Below are positions 2,035 through 28,816 of a DNA stretch of 44,977 nucleotides, one piece after another. The notes beneath the pieces were generated by a model. It saw nothing but the letters and a program-made list of their open reading frames with translations. It did no database searches and was not told the DNA's origin. Where the stretch lies: IMG/VR virus record IMGVR_UViG_2563366968_000003; one strand, given 5' to 3'. A program made the position numbers and the translations under genes. This DNA is from a virus (lineage: Duplodnaviria > Heunggongvirae > Uroviricota > Caudoviricetes). Numbering within the stretch: position 1 is the stretch's first letter; every line of letters begins with the position of its first letter.

Positions 2035-5000
2035 TCAACGAATACTGATGCCGGAAGCGGCTTTTTTGGTCACAATCACCGTACAGTCGGTGATATTACC
2101 TGCCCGCTGATTGCCTTTATGGAAAACCTTAAACTCCAGAGTGACGCTTCCCCTGCCACTCGGCATATCAATAACCGCACTGTAGCTACCGGGAATGGCC
2201 CCTTTAGTTTCTCTGGATGCGATTAATACACCGTTTTTGCGAACTTCAAAACCATAACCCGTGTATCTTGTACCTCCCGGGTTATTACCACTTCCCGGAT
2301 CGCTATACGCTATTCCGTTAAAGATAATGGGCGGAATAATGATTTGACGGTCAAAGTTATGATCATCGCTGATGGTGACTGTAACCGTCCCGTTTGGTGT
2401 TTCCGTGTTACCCCACGTACCAGCCTGTTTCGGAAATGATTTGGATACAGCTTTAACGAAGTCACCTCTGACCTGAGTCGCCTCCAGCATGCCCTTAATC
2501 GTACAGTTTTCATTTACCGTGACATTGTTGAGCGTCCCGGCGTTCGCATTCACACTGCCACTGATATCCGCATTTTTAGCGGTCAGCTTTCCGTCCGGTG
2601 TCAGGGAAAATGCCGGTGGATTTCCACCACTGGTAATGGTCGGGGCCGTCAGGCGTTTCAGGAACACGTCGTTCATGAATATCTGATCGCCCTGACCAAC
2701 AAACATCGGTTTTGTGTTGCCATTCGCAGGATTAACCATCGCAATCCTGTCCGCCGCCAGCAGCACCTGACTCTGCATGCCGTCAGGGGTGTTCTCAATA
2801 CCGGCACCAATACCCGCGATATAAAGGCGTCCGTCCTGCATCTGCTGCAGCTTCACAGCCCACATGCTGTTCAGGTTATTATTTGTATCAACCTGAACCT
2901 TCTGTATCTGCTGAATTGCCGCACTCTGGTCTTCCAGTTTCTTATTGACGGTCTGCGTGATTTCATTGCTGACATGCGTAATGGACGTCCTGATTTCAGC
3001 CAGGTCAGGCGCAAGCTGACCGTTATCAATCTGCGTCCACAGCTCCTGAGCCAGATGGGTTTTCCCTATCTCGCCTTTGAAAAAATCCAGATAACCGGAT
3101 GCATCATCACTCGGCTGACCAACAGCCTCCACGAATGCCGATTTGCCGACGGTGTTCACACTGCGAACGTAAAAATAATAATCATGGCCCGGTTTGATAT
3201 TGATACTGGCAGCTATCCAGTACAGCGCCGTACCAAGATAGCGGGCTGTGGTTTCAACCTGCCTGATATCCGCAATCCGCTTTTCCGAGAACCAGAACTC
3301 AAACTGTACCGTCGGATCATAAACGGCAAGATGCGGCGTTGCGGTTATCTGAAAATAGCCCGGCGTCAGCTCAATCCGCGACGGTGCTGCCGGTGCGGCA
3401 ATCCGGAACGATACCGATGCCGGATCGCCCTGCTGCCCCCAGGCATTTGCCGCCCGGACTGTCAGCCTGTAGTTTCCCAGCGCCAGTTGCGTGAAGCGGT
3501 ATGTGGTTTCCGTCGTCCGGGCCGTGCTGACCAGCCGCTCACTGCCGTCGTCTGCTGCCACAGTCAGGCGAAGCATAAAGCTCACACCCTTCACCACCTT
3601 CGGCGTGTCCCATCGCGCCAGCACCTGATATTCCCCGCTGTCTGCAGTGACTTCGGCGGTCAGATGCTGCACTGCTGGCGGCGTGACACCATTCACCGTG
3701 CCGCTCTGGTCACCGTCAAAGTGCGCCCCGTTATCCACGATGGCCTCTTTCTCCGGCACATGCTGCACGGCAGTGATGGCATACGTGCCGTCGTCGTTCT
3801 CACGGATACTCACGCAGCGGAACAGGCGCTGGCGCAGCGTCGGCAGCTTAAGCCCCCACACGCTGTATTCAGCAACACCGTCAGGAACCCGGCTCACTTT
3901 TACCTTCACGCCGTCGGTGACGGACTGAACCTCCACGCTGACCGGACTCCCCTGCCCGTCAACCAGGCTTATCAGCGTGGTGCCGGAGGCTGGCAGCGTG
4001 ATTTCACGGTCGAGCGTCAGTGTCCGCGTCTGGCTGTTCACCGCCAGCACGCGCCCACCGGTGCTGATGCCCGCATAGTCATCATCGCAGATTTCAATGA
4101 CATCGCCCGGTACATGGCGAAGCCCTTCGGCACCCACGCTGAAGTCCACGGTCTGCGTTTCCAGCAGTTCTGTTTTAATCAGCCACAGCCCGGCTCGGTG
4201 CGCCTGCCCCCGACTGGTACAGCCAAACGCATCCATCTTCGTGACGTTACGACCGTAACGGGCAATGGCCTGCGTGTCCTCCACAAGCTCTGTCGCCGTC
4301 TCCCAGCCGTTATCCGGGTCAATCCAGTTCACCTCAACGGCATTATGGCGGTCCTTGAGGGCGCTGAAGCTGTAGCGGAACGGCGCGCCATCATCCGGCA
4401 TCACCACATTACTGCGGTTATAGGTCCACACCTTATCCGACGGCCGGTCCTGCACGAACGTCAGCGTCTGCCCGTTCCATACCGGCATACAGCGCATCGC
4501 CGAGCAGAAATCACTGAGCACATCCCACGCCTTGCGCTGTGTGGTCAGGTACGCATTACAGGTGATGCGCGGCTCCGTGCCGCCAAAGCCGTCCGGCACT
4601 GACTGGTCGCAGTACTGGCCGATGACATACAGCGCCCATTTGTCCACATCCGCCGCACCAAGACGTTTCCCCATGCCGTAGCGTGGATGGGTCAGCATAT
4701 CCCACAGACACCAGGCCATGTTATTGCTGTATGCTGGCTTAAACGTTCCGTCCCAGATACCGCTGTATTGCCGCGTCTGCGGGTTATAGTTCGACGGCAC
4801 CTGCAGAATGCGCCCGCGAAGATGATAATTACGGCTCACCTGCTGGCTGCCGAACTGCTCCGAGTCCACCTGCACGCCGACCAGTGCCGTGTTCGGGTAG
4901 CACTGTTTCACATCGATGATTTCTGTGTATGACGACCAGAGCGTTTTGTTCTGCAGCTGGTCTGTGGTGCTGTCCGGCGTCATCCTGCGCATCCGGATAT

Positions 5001-5532
5001 TAAACGGGCGCGGCGGCAGGTTATCCACCACCACCGAGGCCAGATACTGCGACGTGGTTTTGCCCTTAATGGTGATGTCTTTTTCCGTCACCCAGCCACC
5101 GTTACGCTGTATCTGAACCAGCAGACGGACTTCCGACGGATTCCTGTCACCCTTTGAGGTGGTTTCCACCAGTGCCTGCACACCGAAGGTAAAGCGCAGA
5201 CGGTCGATGTTTGCAGACGTGATGGTCCGGGTAATCGGCGTGTCGTACTTCACTTCCGTACCCAGCACCGTCTCGGAGCCGGAGGATTCAAACCCCTCCG
5301 GCGGTGTCTGCTCCTGCTCACCTGCCCGGAACACCACCGTGACGCCGGAGATATTGGTATTCCCCTCACTGTCCAGCACTGGCGTACTGTTCAGCAGCAC
5401 ACTTTTTAATCCGTCCACCGGACCTTCAATCGGCCCTTCACTGATGGCGTCTATCACGCTCAGCATCTGGGATGATTTCAGGTTGTCCTTCGCTTCGCGC
5501 GGGGTATGCCCCTTACTGCTGCCTTTACCCAT
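2035..5532 (-). CDS. J: Tail tip / host specificity protein J
   Basis: 1165 aa; N-terminus [20 protein letters not shown] and long central stretches match recalled lambda J; C-terminal portion diverges. Confidence 0.9.
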
Positions 5533-22322: not shown

Positions 22323-23379
22323 GGCTTTGTTGAATAAATCAGATTTCGGGTAAGTCTCCCCCGTAGCGGGTTGTGTTTTCAGGCAATACGCACGCTTTCA
22401 GGTATACCTGCTTTCGTCATTTTGTTCAGCGCTCGTACCAGGGCCATAGCCTCCGCAACCTGACCATCGTAGTCACGCAGCGTCAGTGAACCCCCGAACA
22501 GCTGTTTTACCCGGTACATCGCCGTTTCCGCTATCGAGCGACGGTTGTAATCTGTTGTCCATTTCCACCGCGCATTACTCCCGGTCATTCGCTGATTAGC
22601 CACTGCACGGTTACGGTCTGCATATTCACCGGGCCAGTAACCCGCACCTTTTCGGGGAGGGATAAGCGCGCTGATTTTCTTACGCCGCAGTTCATCGTGA
22701 CATAGCCGGGTATCGTAAGCGCCATCGGCGGCGGCTGACCTGATTTTCCGGTGGGTTTGCCGGATTAACCCGGGGAAGGCCTCTGAGTCCGTAACGTTGT
22801 TCAGCGACAGGTCAGCGCAGATGATTTCATGTGTTTTACTGTCAACGGCGAGATGCAGCTTACGCCAGATACGGCGGCGTTCCTGGCCATGCTTTTTGAC
22901 TTTCCACTCGCCTTCACCGAAGACCTTCAGCCCGGTGGAATCAATTACCAGGTGTGCGATTTCACCCCGGGTGGGCGTTTTGAAACTGACATTAACCGAC
23001 TTTGCCCGCCTGCTGACACAGCTGTAATCCGGGCAGCGTAGCGGAACGTTCATCAGAGAAAAAATGGAATCAATAAAGCCCTGCGCAGCCCGCAGGGTCA
23101 GCCTGAATACGCGTTTAATGACCAGCACAGTAGTGATGGCAAGGTCAGAATAGCGCTGAGGTCTGCCTCGTGAAGAAGGTGTTGCTGACTCATACCAGGC
23201 CTGAATAGCTTCATCATCCAGCCAGAAAGTTATGGAGCCACGGTTGATGAGGGCTTTATTGTAGGTGGGCCAGTTGGTGATTTTGAACTTTTGCTTTGCC
23301 ACGGAACGGTCTGCGTTGTCGGGAAGATACGTGATCTGATCCTTCAACTCAGCAAAAGTTCGATTTATTCAACAAAGCC
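22323..23379 (-). mobile_element. IS903-group insertion sequence (IS5 family), 1057 bp, with 9-bp target duplication CTTTCCAGT at 22314-22322 and 23380-23388
   Basis: Terminal inverted repeats GGCTTTGTTGAATAAATC at both ends; identical 9-bp direct repeats flank the element. Confidence 0.85.
22379..23347 (-). CDS. IS903-type DDE transposase
   Basis: 322-aa ORF filling the element; C-terminus RRSIAETAMYRVKQLFGGSLTLRDY...AGIPESVRIA typical of the IS903 group. Confidence 0.8.
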   Translation of the reverse strand: MKDQITYLPDNADRSVAKQKFKITNWPTYNKALINRGSITFWLDDEAIQAWYESATPSSRGRPQRYSDLAITTVLVIKRVFRLTLRAAQGFIDSIFSLMNVPLRCPDYSCVSRRAKSVNVSFKTPTRGEIAHLVIDSTGLKVFGEGEWKVKKHGQERRRIWRKLHLAVDSKTHEIICADLSLNNVTDSEAFPGLIRQTHRKIRSAAADGAYDTRLCHDELRRKKISALIPPRKGAGYWPGEYADRNRAVANQRMTGSNARWKWTTDYNRRSIAETAMYRVKQLFGGSLTLRDYDGQVAEAMALVRALNKMTKAGIPESVRIA

Positions 23380-23525: not shown

Positions 23526-23717
23526 TCAACTCAAGAGCCTTATTGCTGCTTCCAGAATTTCTTCTGAAGTAACATGTCGATCCGCGGCTACATAAATGAC
23601 TTTATGATCTCCGGTCAGAGATGGAAACCCTGCGGCCATTACAGTAAGGTGTGTTTTTTCGCCATTTGGATATTCACGCATGATGGTGTTAACTCCAGTC
23701 ATCGCTGGCACTACCAC
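23526..23717 (-). CDS. ynfN: YnfN-like small protein; start at 23717 or internal Met at 23681 (51 aa)
   Basis: Contains MREYPNGEKTHLTVMAAGFPSLTGDHKVIYVAADRHVTSEEILEAAIRLLS. Confidence 0.5.
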   Translation of the reverse strand: MVVPAMTGVNTIMREYPNGEKTHLTVMAAGFPSLTGDHKVIYVAADRHVTSEEILEAAIRLLS

Positions 23718-24028
23718 TGCTGGTTCAGAGTTAAAAAAAAACTATGATTTTTTTCATGATGTTACCGTAGTATGTGAGTATCCATCGAATAGACACCAAG
23801 CAAAAAAGCTCCCGAAGGAGCCTTCATTTTCACTTTTTTAAATCCAACGACAGACGGCTGGCATTTAAGTATTGTGAAATATTATCAAATGTAATCATCA
23901 TTGATTTACAAAAGATACATTTTGCCCCGAAAGGATTCATGTCAGAAACATCAAAAGATGATGTTCTATACTGGGAACCATGACAACACGGGCATCTAAA
24001 GTGAATATGGTTTGTAATATTGTCTACC

Positions 24029-24241
24029 TCAAAGCGCCACAACATGAACAGCGGCAGGACCTTTAGGTCCGTTCTCAATACCAAATTCAACTTCCTGATT
24101 CTCAGTTAATGTTTTGAAATCGTTGCTCTGAATTGCTGAGAAATGGACAAACACATCTTTGCTGCCATCTTTCGGCGTGATGAAACCAAAACCTTTTTCA
24201 GGGTTAAACCATTTCACTAAACCAGTCATTTTGTTAGACAT
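24029..24241 (-). CDS. cspI: Cold shock protein CspI-like (CspA family)
   Basis: 70 aa [38 protein letters not shown] with RNP motifs. Confidence 0.9.
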
Positions 24242-25944: not shown

Positions 25945-26160
25945 TTACTCTCCTCTCGCAGCCTTACGCCTGTCTTCTTTAATCTTGAAATAAAGATTTG
26001 TCAGATACGTCAGCAGGCCAAAAACCAGGCTACCCAGCACACCGATTGCAGCCCACTGTGACGGAGTTACTTTATCGAGTAACTGCAATGCCCAGAAACC
26101 AGCATTACCCGCCGATGTGCCATAGGCAACACCTGTTGTTAACTTATCCATTGATTTCAT
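25945..26160 (-). CDS. essQ: Holin (71 aa from MKSMDK; possible dual-start motif)
   Basis: Two hydrophobic helices, charged C-terminus [13 protein letters not shown]; GGTGAGGA ribosome-binding site before the Met at 26160. Confidence 0.8.
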
Positions 26161-26379
26161 ATCCTCACCCCGATGTACACGGATGGTGCAATATGTTTGA
26201 AAAGATCGGAGTCTACGGGGTAGTTTTGACAGCACACGTTGTTCTCAACGGCGCTAAAAAAACATACACATTAAAAATGTGGGTAATTATTTTGAAAGAA
26301 AGTCATATATAAAATAATAATACGAGAAATGTTTTCATATTTAGTGTACTGTATACGGCCATTTATACAGGAAAAGCCT

Positions 26380-26550
26380 ATGTCAGAACGTAAAAACTCA
26401 AAATCACGCCGTAATTATCTCGTTAAATGTTCCTGCCCAAACTGCACCCAAGAGTCAGAACACAGTTTTTCAAGAGTACAAAAAGGTGCCCTTTTGATCT
26501 GCCCTCATTGCAACAAAGTATTCCAGACAAATCTTAAAGCTGTAGCCTGA
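26380..26550 (+). CDS. ynfU: Small zinc-ribbon protein (56 aa), YnfU-like
   Basis: MSERKNSKSRRNYLVKCSCPNCTQESEHSFSRVQKGALLICPHCNKVFQTNLKAVA has CxCxxC...CxxC. Confidence 0.5.
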   Translation: MSERKNSKSRRNYLVKCSCPNCTQESEHSFSRVQKGALLICPHCNKVFQTNLKAVA

Positions 26551-26610
26551 TTGATTTTATTAGTAACAAGTATTTTTTATATTTTAATAATATATTTAAA
26601 GCAGATAATA

Positions 26611-26632
26611 AAAAACCCGCCTGAGCGGGTTT
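26611..26632. terminator. Bidirectional hairpin terminator between the zinc-ribbon gene and cspB
   Basis: AACCCGC-CTGA-GCGGGTT with A/T runs on both sides. Confidence 0.5.
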
Positions 26633-26913
26633 GAGATTGTGGTGCTTTTTGTGGGAGTCATCCACTTACGCACTTTGTTTTGCCATGCCAGCAGTTAGCT
26701 TCTGCTGTAAAACTATTCATGCAGCAAACCTGCACTTCACCACAATGGTTAGCATACTTTTCCTGATTAAGATTTTGCCAAATATGCTAGCCATTGTTTC
26801 ATGTATTGGACCTCCTTACTTTTTATTAAAGAGATCCAATATTCACTACTCTGTCCGTATCTCTACTCAGGCATCAGCCTTCTTCGTTATCGTATACAGA
26901 CGAGCGATGAATT

Positions 26914-27129
26914 TTAATCAGTAATGATGACATTTGCTGCTGCAGGACCTTTAGCACCACTCTCTATAGAGAAGGTAACCTTTTGACCTTCAAATAAGGT
27001 TCGATAATTATCATTCTGAATCGCAGAAAAATGCACAAACACATCTTTACTACCATCAACAGGAGAAATAAAGCCGAAACCTTTATCAGCGTTAAACCAT
27101 TTTACTAAACCAGTCATTTTATTTGACAT
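26914..27129 (-). CDS. cspB: Cold shock protein CspB-like
   Basis: 71 aa [38 protein letters not shown]. Confidence 0.9.
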
Positions 27130-27429
27130 TCTACATTCCTTAACTTGAGCCTTTCGGCATAAATGGTTTGCATAACAGAAACGACTTCGTACTTAATTGG
27201 AGAGACTCAAAGAAGGAATAAGTGAATAACACCTGAAATGAGAACTGCTTTAGTAAACTACTTCGTATATCGTCTGTTCTTCAAACCGACGCAATCATTA
27301 ACGCATAGTTGAACATATGAAGCAATGTTTATTTTAGACATCCAGCCATCTTCAACCCCATCAAAAAACTATAGCTTTCTTCAGGAACGTGTGTATAGTG
27401 CGCCAAGTTATCAGTATTAAGGAATTTTT

Positions 27430-27642
27430 TTGTCCCGTAAAATGACAGGAATTGTCAAAACCTTTGACGGCAAAAGCGGCAAGGGTCTTATCACCCCATC
27501 CGATGGTCGTATCGATGTCCAGCTTCATGTTTCAGCGCTCAATCTCCGCGATGCAGAAGAAATTACCACCGGATTACGCGTGGAATTTTGCCGGATAAAT
27601 GGTCTGCGTGGCCCTTCAACTGCCAATGTTTACCTTTCATGA
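27430..27642 (+). CDS. cspF: Cold shock domain protein CspF-like (divergent CspA paralogue)
   Basis: 70 aa [39 protein letters not shown]. Confidence 0.85.
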
Positions 27643-27934
27643 GCTATATTAAAGCTTTAATTTCAGGCCCCATCGGATCACACATGGAGAGTTTTTATGA
27701 ATAACCCCGTCTGTCTTGATGACTGGTTGATTGGCTTTAAAAGCTTATGCTGTACTTTGGCCGTAATAGCTCTGCTAATAATATAATAAGCAGACTCATT
27801 GTGTTTAGGGACATTGTACTGGAAGAAAACATTTTAAACATCAGGCAAATAACCAAGTCACCAGCTAAATAATAAGTTAACAGACATGAGTCCCGGGATG
27901 AGATTCAACATTACCATTGCCCCATTTAAAGCAC

Positions 27935-27957
27935 AAAACCCGCTCATCAGCGGGTTT
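27935..27957. terminator. Hairpin terminator downstream of the Q gene; candidate tR' of the late operon
   Basis: AAACCCGC-TCATCA-GCGGGTTT with T-rich flanks, about 100 bp past the Q stop. Confidence 0.5.
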
Positions 27958-28063
27958 TCTACTTTTTCTTAACGTCGGGTATACAAAGCCCATCGTTGAA
28001 AAAATTTTATCCATATTTTTTGAAAAATGCAAACATCATGTCGCCATCTTCAGCAAAAATCAT

Positions 28064-28816
28064 TTATCTCGTCACCTTCCTCAATTGCGCTTCCGCGTAT
28101 GCTTCTTCCTGCCAGCACTTTGTTACCAGTTTACCAATGACGTCCGCATACCCCTTATACCACTGATAATCGGTCAGGTCTGGTACCAGCTTCTGGACAT
28201 GACGTCGTGCCAGCGTGGTCGGTAAACGACTAAACCGGTTTCCATTACAACGCCCACAAATCTTATATACCGGTACGCCATGAAACCGGGTTCTTTTTTC
28301 ATCCAGAACAATCCCTTTACCCTTACACCCTCTGCACGCTGTACTGGCTTCGCCCTTACCATGGCAATGCTGACATAGTTCCTTCACCCATTCTTCCTTG
28401 ATTACAGATTCCCCGCGTCTGTAGTGTTTCACCACTTCGCGCAATACATTATAAAATCCCGTACCTGAACAATGCTCACAGCGAGCCTTACTTGCCGCAG
28501 ACCTGGAGTAATCAGCAAAGGCAAAACTCACGAGGTAAGGAATAATCTGTAACCGGATTTCTTCACTCAATTTGTTCAATGTCGGGTTATCCAGTGCCAT
28601 CGCGTAATTTAGCAGGCCTTCAATCGCAAACTGAGGGTCCTGAACACCAACTTTTGCCAGAAATAAGGCCAACCCAAGTGGTGCTTTCGACTGCACCATC
28701 CCCTGCGCTGCCATTACATCCGTAATTGTTAAACAACCGGTGCCTGTCGCTGGAGCGTCATCGCTCAATTTTGGAGATTTTGGGGAGTAATATTTTGGTA
28801 AGGCTTCAAGGTTCAT
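28064..28816 (-). CDS. quuQ: Late gene antiterminator Q-like protein (start at MNLEALPKYY)
   Basis: 250 aa from the internal Met; multiple CxxC zinc-finger motifs (CEHCSGTG, CQHCHGKG, CRGCKGKG, CGRCNG); located just before the late region. Confidence 0.8.
   Translation of the reverse strand: MNLEALPKYYSPKSPKLSDDAPATGTGCLTITDVMAAQGMVQSKAPLGLALFLAKVGVQDPQFAIEGLLNYAMALDNPTLNKLSEEIRLQIIPYLVSFAFADYSRSAASKARCEHCSGTGFYNVLREVVKHYRRGESVIKEEWVKELCQHCHGKGEASTACRGCKGKGIVLDEKRTRFHGVPVYKICGRCNGNRFSRLPTTLARRHVQKLVPDLTDYQWYKGYADVIGKLVTKCWQEEAYAEAQLRKVTR

Follow-up and report, generated by a model that had tools for sequence, protein, structure and literature searches.

ynfU of a Qin-type prophage, a predicted zinc-ribbon gene, lies in a recurrent neighbourhood of cold-shock genes across Enterobacteriaceae

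The 44,977-nucleotide stretch of the tailed-virus record IMGVR_UViG_2563366968_000003 (Caudoviricetes), called the window hereafter, is a lambdoid prophage fuller than the decayed Qin of Escherichia coli K-12, with head and tail genes at about 1–20 kb. Between its holin gene and the cold-shock gene cspB lies a short open reading frame (ORF) on the plus strand at 26380..26550, with an ATG at 26380 and a stop codon at 26548–26550, whose 56-residue product is MSERKNSKSRRNYLVKCSCPNCTQESEHSFSRVQKGALLICPHCNKVFQTNLKAVA. This ORF is ynfU, and the gene, its relatives, and the company that they keep are the subject of this analysis. The ORF and its nearest neighbors are as follows.
26369..26372, plus strand: Shine–Dalgarno sequence AGGA, 7 nt 5' of the ATG (from the sequence; conserved)
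26380..26550, plus strand: ynfU coding sequence, 56 codons and stop (from the sequence, the K-12 annotation, family models, and conservation)
25945..26160, minus strand: holin gene of the essD/essQ type (phage P21 holin S family), divergent from ynfU
26914..27129, minus strand: cspB, convergent with ynfU and its commonest conserved neighbor; cold-shock domain (CSD), CspA subfamily
27430..27642, plus strand (as ynfU): cspF, the second recurrent neighbor; CSD

Over the 501 bp around the ORF, the window matches E. coli K-12 W3110 at 100% identity; in W3110 the ORF is annotated as ynfU (b4776, "putative zinc-binding protein YnfU", WP_211180497.1) between essD/essQ and cspB. The same segment was found in 1653 of 5426 complete E. 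coli genomes. The product matched Pfam YnfU (PF23499) at 107.3 bits against a cut-off of 27, with residues 1–49 on profile positions 1–49 of 49, and NCBIfam YnfU (NF038384) at 79.4 bits against a cut-off of 36. Compared with the K-12 member of the family, the protein has an identical sequence, the gene has the same essD/essQ–cspB position, and no difference was seen at the gene level. By its sequence, the ORF is ynfU of Qin-type prophages, a gene already annotated and described; because it is present in RefSeq, Pfam, NCBIfam, and the small-protein literature, its rediscovery adds nothing. The original prediction, made from the letters of the window, had reported a CxCxxC...CxxC pattern in a 56-residue protein and had tentatively pointed to a zinc-binding YnfU of this length in K-12 Qin. 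Its coordinates and Cys pattern (C17-S-C19-P-N-C22 ... C41-P-H-C44, as read from the translation) are exact, and the 501-bp identity and the two family models bear out this suggestion. It described the gene as encoded divergently between the holin gene and cspB, on the strand opposite to the flanking genes. ynfU is opposite to both, divergent from the holin gene and convergent with cspB, and cspF shares its strand. The gap to the holin gene is 219 bp (36% G+C), and the stop-to-stop gap to cspB is 363 bp.

The gene was discovered in a 2019 E. coli study by Ribo-RET, a ribosome profiling of stalled initiation complexes, in which YnfU carrying a sequential peptide affinity (SPA) tag exceeded all other newly found small proteins in abundance on western blots, expression was seen in uninduced K-12, the host of cryptic Qin, and the authors remarked on "a pair of zinc knuckles" and on PA0128 as a moderate match in threading (bioRxiv 10.1101/511675). 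Translation was detected independently by PIRT-seq, a transposon-reporter screen (PMC12350097). Later literature only repeats a "possible metal-binding function" or lists b4776 among genes without literature.

Gene status was assessed in 80 species-representative ynfU loci plus phage loci, and the counts below run over 80, 83, or 84 loci. The start codon aligned with position 26380 is ATG in 82 of 84 loci and GTG in the other two, and an AGGA or GGAG Shine–Dalgarno sequence precedes it by 7–10 nt in essentially all 84. The median pairwise ratio of nonsynonymous to synonymous substitution rates (dN/dS) is 0.12 (629 species pairs with dS between 0.1 and 1.5). C19, C22, C41, and C44 are invariant in all 83 species-level loci, as are P20 and P42 of the two CPxC knuckles, and C17 is present in 80. 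The other positions invariant in this set are R4, K5, N12, L14, S26-E27-H28-S29, R32, K35, G36, and L39. The original prediction would have been called into question by unconserved Cys residues among homologs or by a lack of translation; the four knuckle Cys are kept throughout, and translation of the identical K-12 gene is documented by Ribo-RET, the SPA-tag western blot, and PIRT-seq. That the frame stays open merely by chance in AT-rich intergenic DNA and has no protein function is suggested by its shortness, the 36–40% G+C of the region, and the lack of a known phenotype, but the dN/dS of 0.12, the invariant Cys, a start and Shine–Dalgarno sequence kept in at least 80 species, the curated family models, and the experimentally detected protein leave this idea practically no credence. 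ynfU is a real, translated gene under purifying selection. A 73-residue reading from an upstream ATG at 26329 was rejected. Across the loci, the distance to the first in-frame stop on the 5' side ranges from 1 to 93 codons and is often 4–5, and the extended frame is not the gene because in many species these stops are so close (often only 1–5 codons upstream).

For the gene neighborhood, loci were probed with the window proteins, and all ORFs within 3 kb of ynfU were clustered. A csp gene lies within 1.2 kb of ynfU in 57 of 80 species loci, a CspB-like neighbor in 49, a CspF-like neighbor in 36, and both in 28. A homolog of YnfN (76 residues) is encoded divergently upstream in 29 of 83 loci, and a YmcF-like Cys-rich protein (PF23641) is found nearby in 10. 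The commonest geometry is that of the window, with ynfU on the plus strand, cspB on the minus strand, and cspF on the plus strand. E. coli has nine csp paralogs, and from this number we roughly estimate that chance alone would place a csp gene within 1.2 kb of well under 1% of genes. ynfU is thus shown to be part of a recurrent small-gene neighborhood (CspB-like and CspF-like, often with YnfN-like or YmcF-like proteins) across Enterobacteriaceae.

The flanks of this neighborhood vary widely. In Klebsiella, ynfU is chromosomal, followed by a CSD gene and set between metabolic operons, and in Klebsiella and Raoultella it is accompanied by a LysR-type regulator and apparent budA/budB genes (judged from translated ORFs). 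The chromosomal ynfU of Kosakonia is convergent with a CSD gene, and in Hafnia the order is ynfU, a DUF2058 gene, and a CSD gene about 0.8 kb downstream. The chromosomal gene of Enterobacter lies near genes for a tautomerase, a glutathione S-transferase, and an ArsR-type regulator, with no csp gene. Three phage settings were seen. In Qin, PhiR42_1, and HannyBb, ynfU sits with csp genes in the interval between the antiterminator gene Q and the holin gene; in the Klebsiella phage ST13-OXA48phi12.4, it occupies the same interval with no csp genes and an unrelated lysis cassette; and in PHB10, it adjoins the integrase gene together with ynfN, cspB, and cspF. Within Enterobacteriaceae, the linkage of ynfU with csp genes is therefore strong, though not universal, and it persists through relocation between very different flanks. 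Most of the family lies outside prophages, and many copies are in ordinary chromosome. The modest novelty of this analysis is that ynfU travels with csp genes rather than with phage lysis genes and that its distribution is largely non-phage. This context corrects the natural assumption of a lysis-associated or phage-specific gene.

Two same-strand arrangements were observed. In Yokenella regensburgei (locus L084, about 4755..5160), a cspF-like gene ends ~35 nt before ynfU, and the usual promoter block (described below) is missing; in a Klebsiella locus (L088, 6001..6698), a CSD gene begins ~315 nt after ynfU. These arrangements suggest that ynfU and csp genes are cotranscribed in some genera. 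Four loci from assemblies titled Veillonella, Vagococcus, Kocuria, and a Bacillota metagenome-assembled genome (L007, L029, L039, and L041) carry ynfU with typical enterobacterial flanks; these are most likely contaminating enterobacterial contigs.

The lysis–csp–Q region of the window is 99.9% identical to K-12 Qin. The sequenced phage PhiR42_1 is 98.7% identical over 91% of a 25-kb query from the window and has the same gene order (Q, ynfS, cspF, cspB, ynfU, holin), a layout shared by HannyBb. The features between cspF and the Q gene, including the candidate late promoter (PR') and its terminator (tR'), are as follows.
27697..27786, plus strand: ynfS, a small ORF of 29 residues between cspF and Q
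28064..28816, minus strand: Q-type antiterminator gene ydfT/quuQ (K-12 annotation; PF03589, 181 bits)
28033 to 28004, minus strand: candidate PR', TTTGCA-18-TAAAAT (inferred from a consensus scan)
27958 to 27935, minus strand: candidate tR'-like hairpin; folding energy of the region −24.1 kcal/mol (61-nt context)

ynfS has been validated as a small protein in K-12 (PMC6001520). The candidate PR'/tR' pair sits directly after the Q gene, ~1.6 kb from ynfU, and we infer that 27935..28033 on the minus strand contains the late promoter and its terminator. This placement implies a late transcript that would run ~1.8 kb to the holin gene and on its way cross cspF, cspB, and ynfU, of which only cspB would be read in sense and the other two in antisense. 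Q-dependent readthrough cannot express ynfU, and may interfere with it, because ynfU is antisense to this transcript. A holin late promoter at the position of ynfU, where the original prediction expected it, was rejected in favor of the candidate pair adjoining Q. It is strongly indicated that ynfU is not part of the lysis machinery or of the late promoter.

The suggestion of an accessory (moron) gene fits the local anatomy, although ynfU is not phage-specific, its family being mostly outside prophages. Homologous lysis cassettes and phages occur with and without ynfU, and ynfU also occurs without phage genes. Its G+C content is 40% against 50.6% for the window, which, together with its expression from an uninduced K-12 prophage, fits a moron. 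In this prophage of the Qin/PhiR42_1 type, a low-G+C moron with its own ribosome-binding site and promoter-like block is strongly indicated. The Q-to-holin interval is the position of the Shiga toxin genes (stx) in Stx phages. ynfU resembles the morons of this slot in its low G+C, in what look like its own expression signals, and in its expression from the prophage, and differs from them in being antisense to the late transcript and in the mostly non-phage distribution of its family. Taken jointly, the identity, gene status, moron anatomy, and neighborhood of ynfU can be held with good confidence.

The same anatomy bears on the possibility that YnfU regulates the phage life cycle, acting on late transcription or lysis timing through binding to the divergent region or through transcription interference. 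ynfU is divergent from the holin gene across a short AT-rich gap in the window, the same divergence is found in ST13-OXA48phi12.4 (whose holin and lysozyme were undetected by the window proteins), and lambdoid phages carry ynfU in the Q-to-holin interval, so late transcription crosses it in antisense. Against this, a holin gene is near ynfU in only 8 of 83 loci and a lysozyme gene in 11, many copies lie in non-phage chromosome, PHB10 has ynfU with cspB and cspF next to the integrase gene and away from the lysis genes, and ynfU is expressed in uninduced K-12 with cryptic Qin. PHROGs contains no YnfU family and gave weak matches only. The phage-regulator explanation is disfavored because most family members are not in phages, and we regard it as improbable.

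The expression signals around ynfU were located by motif scans, alignment, and folding.
26292..26352, plus strand: candidate ynfU promoter region (scan and alignment)
26613..26632, strand not assigned: G+C-rich hairpin, 62 nt 3' of the ynfU stop, folding energy −17 to −21 kcal/mol (61-nt context)

A sigma-70-like match, TTGAAA-18-AATAAT (26292..26321, 10 of 12 positions), is confined to Escherichia. Across genera, a conserved block 5' of ynfU consists of an AT-rich stretch, C-x-A-G-C near −35, and then GTGTAtgGT (33 loci from many genera); the window has CGAG near −35 and, as its copy of the last element, GTGTACTGT at 26344..26352, ~30 nt before the ATG. This block leaves a ynfU leader of at most about 20–50 nt. 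RpoH and RpoE holoenzyme peaks from systematic evolution of ligands by exponential enrichment were reported in the "essQ-cspB spacer", before ynfU was annotated (PMC5493296), and lend weak support to promoter activity in this spacer. On the 3' side, the hairpin at 26613..26632 has a T-run on the minus strand only. It looks like a cspB terminator, whereas as a stop for the ynfU transcript it would be at best weak, and transcription of ynfU may run on into the 3' region of cspB. The ynfU–cspB gap (26551..26913) is unusually long and contains two terminator-like hairpins on the minus strand (26735..26719 and 26632..26613). The 3' untranslated region (UTR) of cspB may be ~180–300 nt long, ending ~60 nt from the ynfU stop. 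No family matched convincingly in an Rfam scan of this gap, and an evolution study recorded a polymorphism in it (PMC13306010).

YnfU has an isoelectric point (pI) of 9.6 and a net charge of +6.6, and the family in Enterobacteriaceae ranges from pI 9.4 to 10.0. The four invariant Cys in two CPxC knuckles are expected to bind one zinc ion in a zinc-ribbon fold. The AlphaFold2 model (mean predicted local distance difference test score 64, predicted template-modeling (TM) score 0.37, floppy ends) has four short β-strands at residues 13–16, 27–30, 38–40, and 47–49, compatible with a zinc ribbon; in Foldseek, LysW and other small ribbons align with the model at TM scores of 0.43–0.47. A profile search of 1.8 billion cluster representatives gave only 44 YnfU matches, all of them Enterobacterales-type small proteins or spurious repeats, and none of these matches formed a bridge to a characterized family. 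Distant members occur in Yersinia, Hafnia, Erwinia, Cronobacter, Mangrovibacter, and Jejubacter. When they are added, the sole invariant positions are C19, P20, C22, L39, C41, and C44. The metal site is probably the classic Cys4 of two CPxC knuckles because C17 is lost in these members, and C17 is, on this alignment, a clade-specific extra cysteine.

All 19 diverse members scanned against Pfam pass the YnfU model, and every other family is subthreshold. The subthreshold matches in Pfam and among PDB sequences are to zinc-ribbon families only, including DUF7836 and generic Zn_ribbon families, and profile searches of PDB sequences gave marginal matches to eL42/L44e (E = 0.002–0.03), Tim15, bL33, and PA0128. 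As far as sequence comparison can tell, YnfU is a small family of its own, restricted to Enterobacterales, within the zinc-ribbon fold class, and no characterized family is demonstrably related to it. The best non-YnfU Pfam match is the N-terminal zinc ribbon of PhnA/YjdM (PF08274; Pseudomonas aeruginosa PA0128, PDB 2akl), which has two CPxC-type knuckles like YnfU. It scores 22.4 bits (E = 1.3e-4), below its gathering threshold of 30.8 bits, and 13 of the 19 members match it weakly. YnfU lacks the C-terminal PhnA domain, and its knuckles are 18 residues apart, against presumably 13 in YjdM. We know of no function for YjdM. Ribosomal eL42/L44e and bL33 and the archaeal zinc-finger proteins of the HVO_2753 type are, as YnfU, small basic Cys4 ribbons, and they resemble it in the first knuckle and the next strand (C-P-x-C-x-x-x-x-E-H-S), but all these matches are marginal and cover only ~20 residues. 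YmcF and YnfQ (PF23641), encoded beside cspG and cspI, are likewise small CPxC-containing proteins whose genes adjoin csp genes. Homology of YnfU with them was rejected: hhalign gave a probability of 1.7% over seven aligned columns, and YnfU has no PF23641 match.

Based on the neighborhood and the family features, we propose a role for YnfU as a small adaptor of the zinc-ribbon type, whose ligand would be nucleic acid, with RNA or the ribosome as the likeliest target. Its contact surfaces would be the basic N-terminal tail (R4, K5, R11, and N12) and the invariant S-E-H-S-F / R-x-Q-K-G face. The protein would be made from the lysogen and act alongside the Csp RNA chaperones of its neighborhood. 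The RNA- or ribosome-binding mechanism itself is put forward tentatively, as possible rather than probable. A bolder version is that YnfU is the third partner of a mobile "ynfU-cspB-cspF" cold-shock module and, by binding RNA or the ribosome, adjusts how the atypical Csp paralogs beside it act or are expressed; lambdoid phages (Qin, PhiR42_1) would have captured this module to alter the RNA metabolism of the lysogen at low temperature. This version we consider doubtful.

Several observations weigh against the proposal. The csp linkage is incomplete, with 23 of 80 species loci lacking a csp gene and none nearby in Yersinia (fadR-nhaB-dsbB-ynfU) or Erwinia (beside fliE), and the loci are phylogenetically related, so the counts overstate the independent events. 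Confidence in the AlphaFold2 model is only moderate, and its comparison with PDB by Foldseek yielded nothing significant (best PA0128, E = 0.83). The basic N-terminal tail is unconserved in the distant Yersinia, Hafnia, and Erwinia members, and the tail as functional core is weakened because of this. The literature searched contained no zinc-binding measurement for YnfU and no cold-shock or other functional data on ynfU/b4776. Upstream of ynfU, no match to the cspA-type thermoregulator (RF01766) was found at E up to 1. In the window, this element is found on cspB.
26898..27290, minus strand: cspA-type thermoregulator mRNA element that spans the 5'UTR and coding sequence of cspB (Rfam RF01766, 158.8 bits against a gathering threshold of 78, full-length)

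The adjoining cspF gave no RF01766 match. A cspA-type thermosensor on ynfU was rejected, RF01766 matching cspB only. YnfU itself is probably not a classic cold-shock-induced protein because it is expressed at 37 °C and has no thermosensor of this type.

The loss of the basic tail in distant members, which keep the ribbon face, is also a point for a different target: YnfU would use its ribbon to bind and modulate a larger protein of the host instead of nucleic acid, as Tim15/Hep1 does as an Hsp70 escort or YacG as a gyrase inhibitor. Among PDB sequences, Tim15 (PDB 2e2z) ranks with the best matches of the family profile (E = 0.013, then E = 0.004), its likeness extends beyond the Cys to S-x-H-[ST]-[FM]-S-[KR] and K-G-x-x-L-I-x-C-P-H-C, and the discovery paper voices the expectation that small proteins mostly act by binding larger ones (bioRxiv 10.1101/511675). 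However, YnfU scores 13.5 bits with the DNL-type zinc finger of Tim15/Hep1 (zf-DNL, PF05180), far under the gathering threshold of 27, YacG and other families are equally weak, and eL42/L44e score as well as Tim15. The residues past the second knuckle, where DNL fingers have their D-N-L motif, are variable in YnfU, with T-N-L only in the E. coli clade. No chaperone gene or candidate target gene recurs next to ynfU. We rate a protein-binding ribbon as rather unlikely.

Metal homeostasis is another conceivable role, in which YnfU would, for example, buffer zinc or iron, serve as a metallochaperone, or switch in response to a metal, using its five Cys together with the invariant Glu27 and His28. 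A 56-residue protein with five conserved Cys and an invariant S-E-H-S would suit such a role, a 2026 preprint lists ynfU as upregulated with suf and Fur-regulon genes (bioRxiv 10.64898/2026.08.03.742565), and 15 of 23 positions of the Zur-box consensus are matched in the Escherichia ynfU promoter region. The Zur-like match, however, is confined to Escherichia. Over the 80 species, the mean Fur-box score was 10.7 against 10.5–10.7 in controls (shuffled or G+C-matched sequences) and the mean Zur-box score was 12.5 against 12.2–12.3. Control of ynfU by a Fur or Zur box is therefore unsupported, the similarity being no better than in the controls. Furthermore, no metal-transport or metal-regulator gene recurs near ynfU, and the absence of C17 in distant members leaves a plain structural Cys4 site. 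A metal-homeostasis function is accordingly judged improbable, whereas the RNA- or ribosome-binding adaptor remains the reading that we prefer, at the tentative level given above. A PADLOC scan found no defense-system match for YnfU, YnfN, or the YmcF-like protein.

In the window, small cold-shock-associated genes were observed on both sides of the lysis cassette. Those just downstream of the cassette are as follows.
24029..24241, minus strand: cspI
about 23830..24018, minus strand: ynfQ, a YmcF-like Cys-rich ORF (PF23641)
23762..23833, minus strand: ynfR
23526..23717 and 23731..23799, minus strand: ynfN, split by a frameshift; a pseudogene in the K-12 annotation too

YnfR is strongly cold-shock induced (PMC6001520), and ynfQ has been described as cold-shock induced, varying together with cspI and ynfN (PMC11228462). 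ynfN is intact (76 residues) in PhiR42_1 and in 29 species loci, where it is usually divergent from ynfU at 100–400 bp; its product has no Pfam family match and matches PHROG 3425, of unknown function. In other genera, ynfN, ymcF-like, csp, and ynfU genes are directly adjacent, with no lysis genes between them.

Between the gnsB side and ynfN lies a 1057-bp insertion sequence (22323..23379). Its terminal inverted repeats are 18 bp long (GGCTTTGTTGAATAAATC), and the target duplication is 9 bp (CTTTCCAGT). The transposase ORF (22379..23347, minus strand) contains the DDE domains PF13737 and PF01609. K-12 Qin lacks this insertion, and in PhiR42_1 no transposase is annotated in the gnsB–ynfN interval. 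We take the element's size, repeats, and duplication to fit an IS903-type element of the IS5 family.

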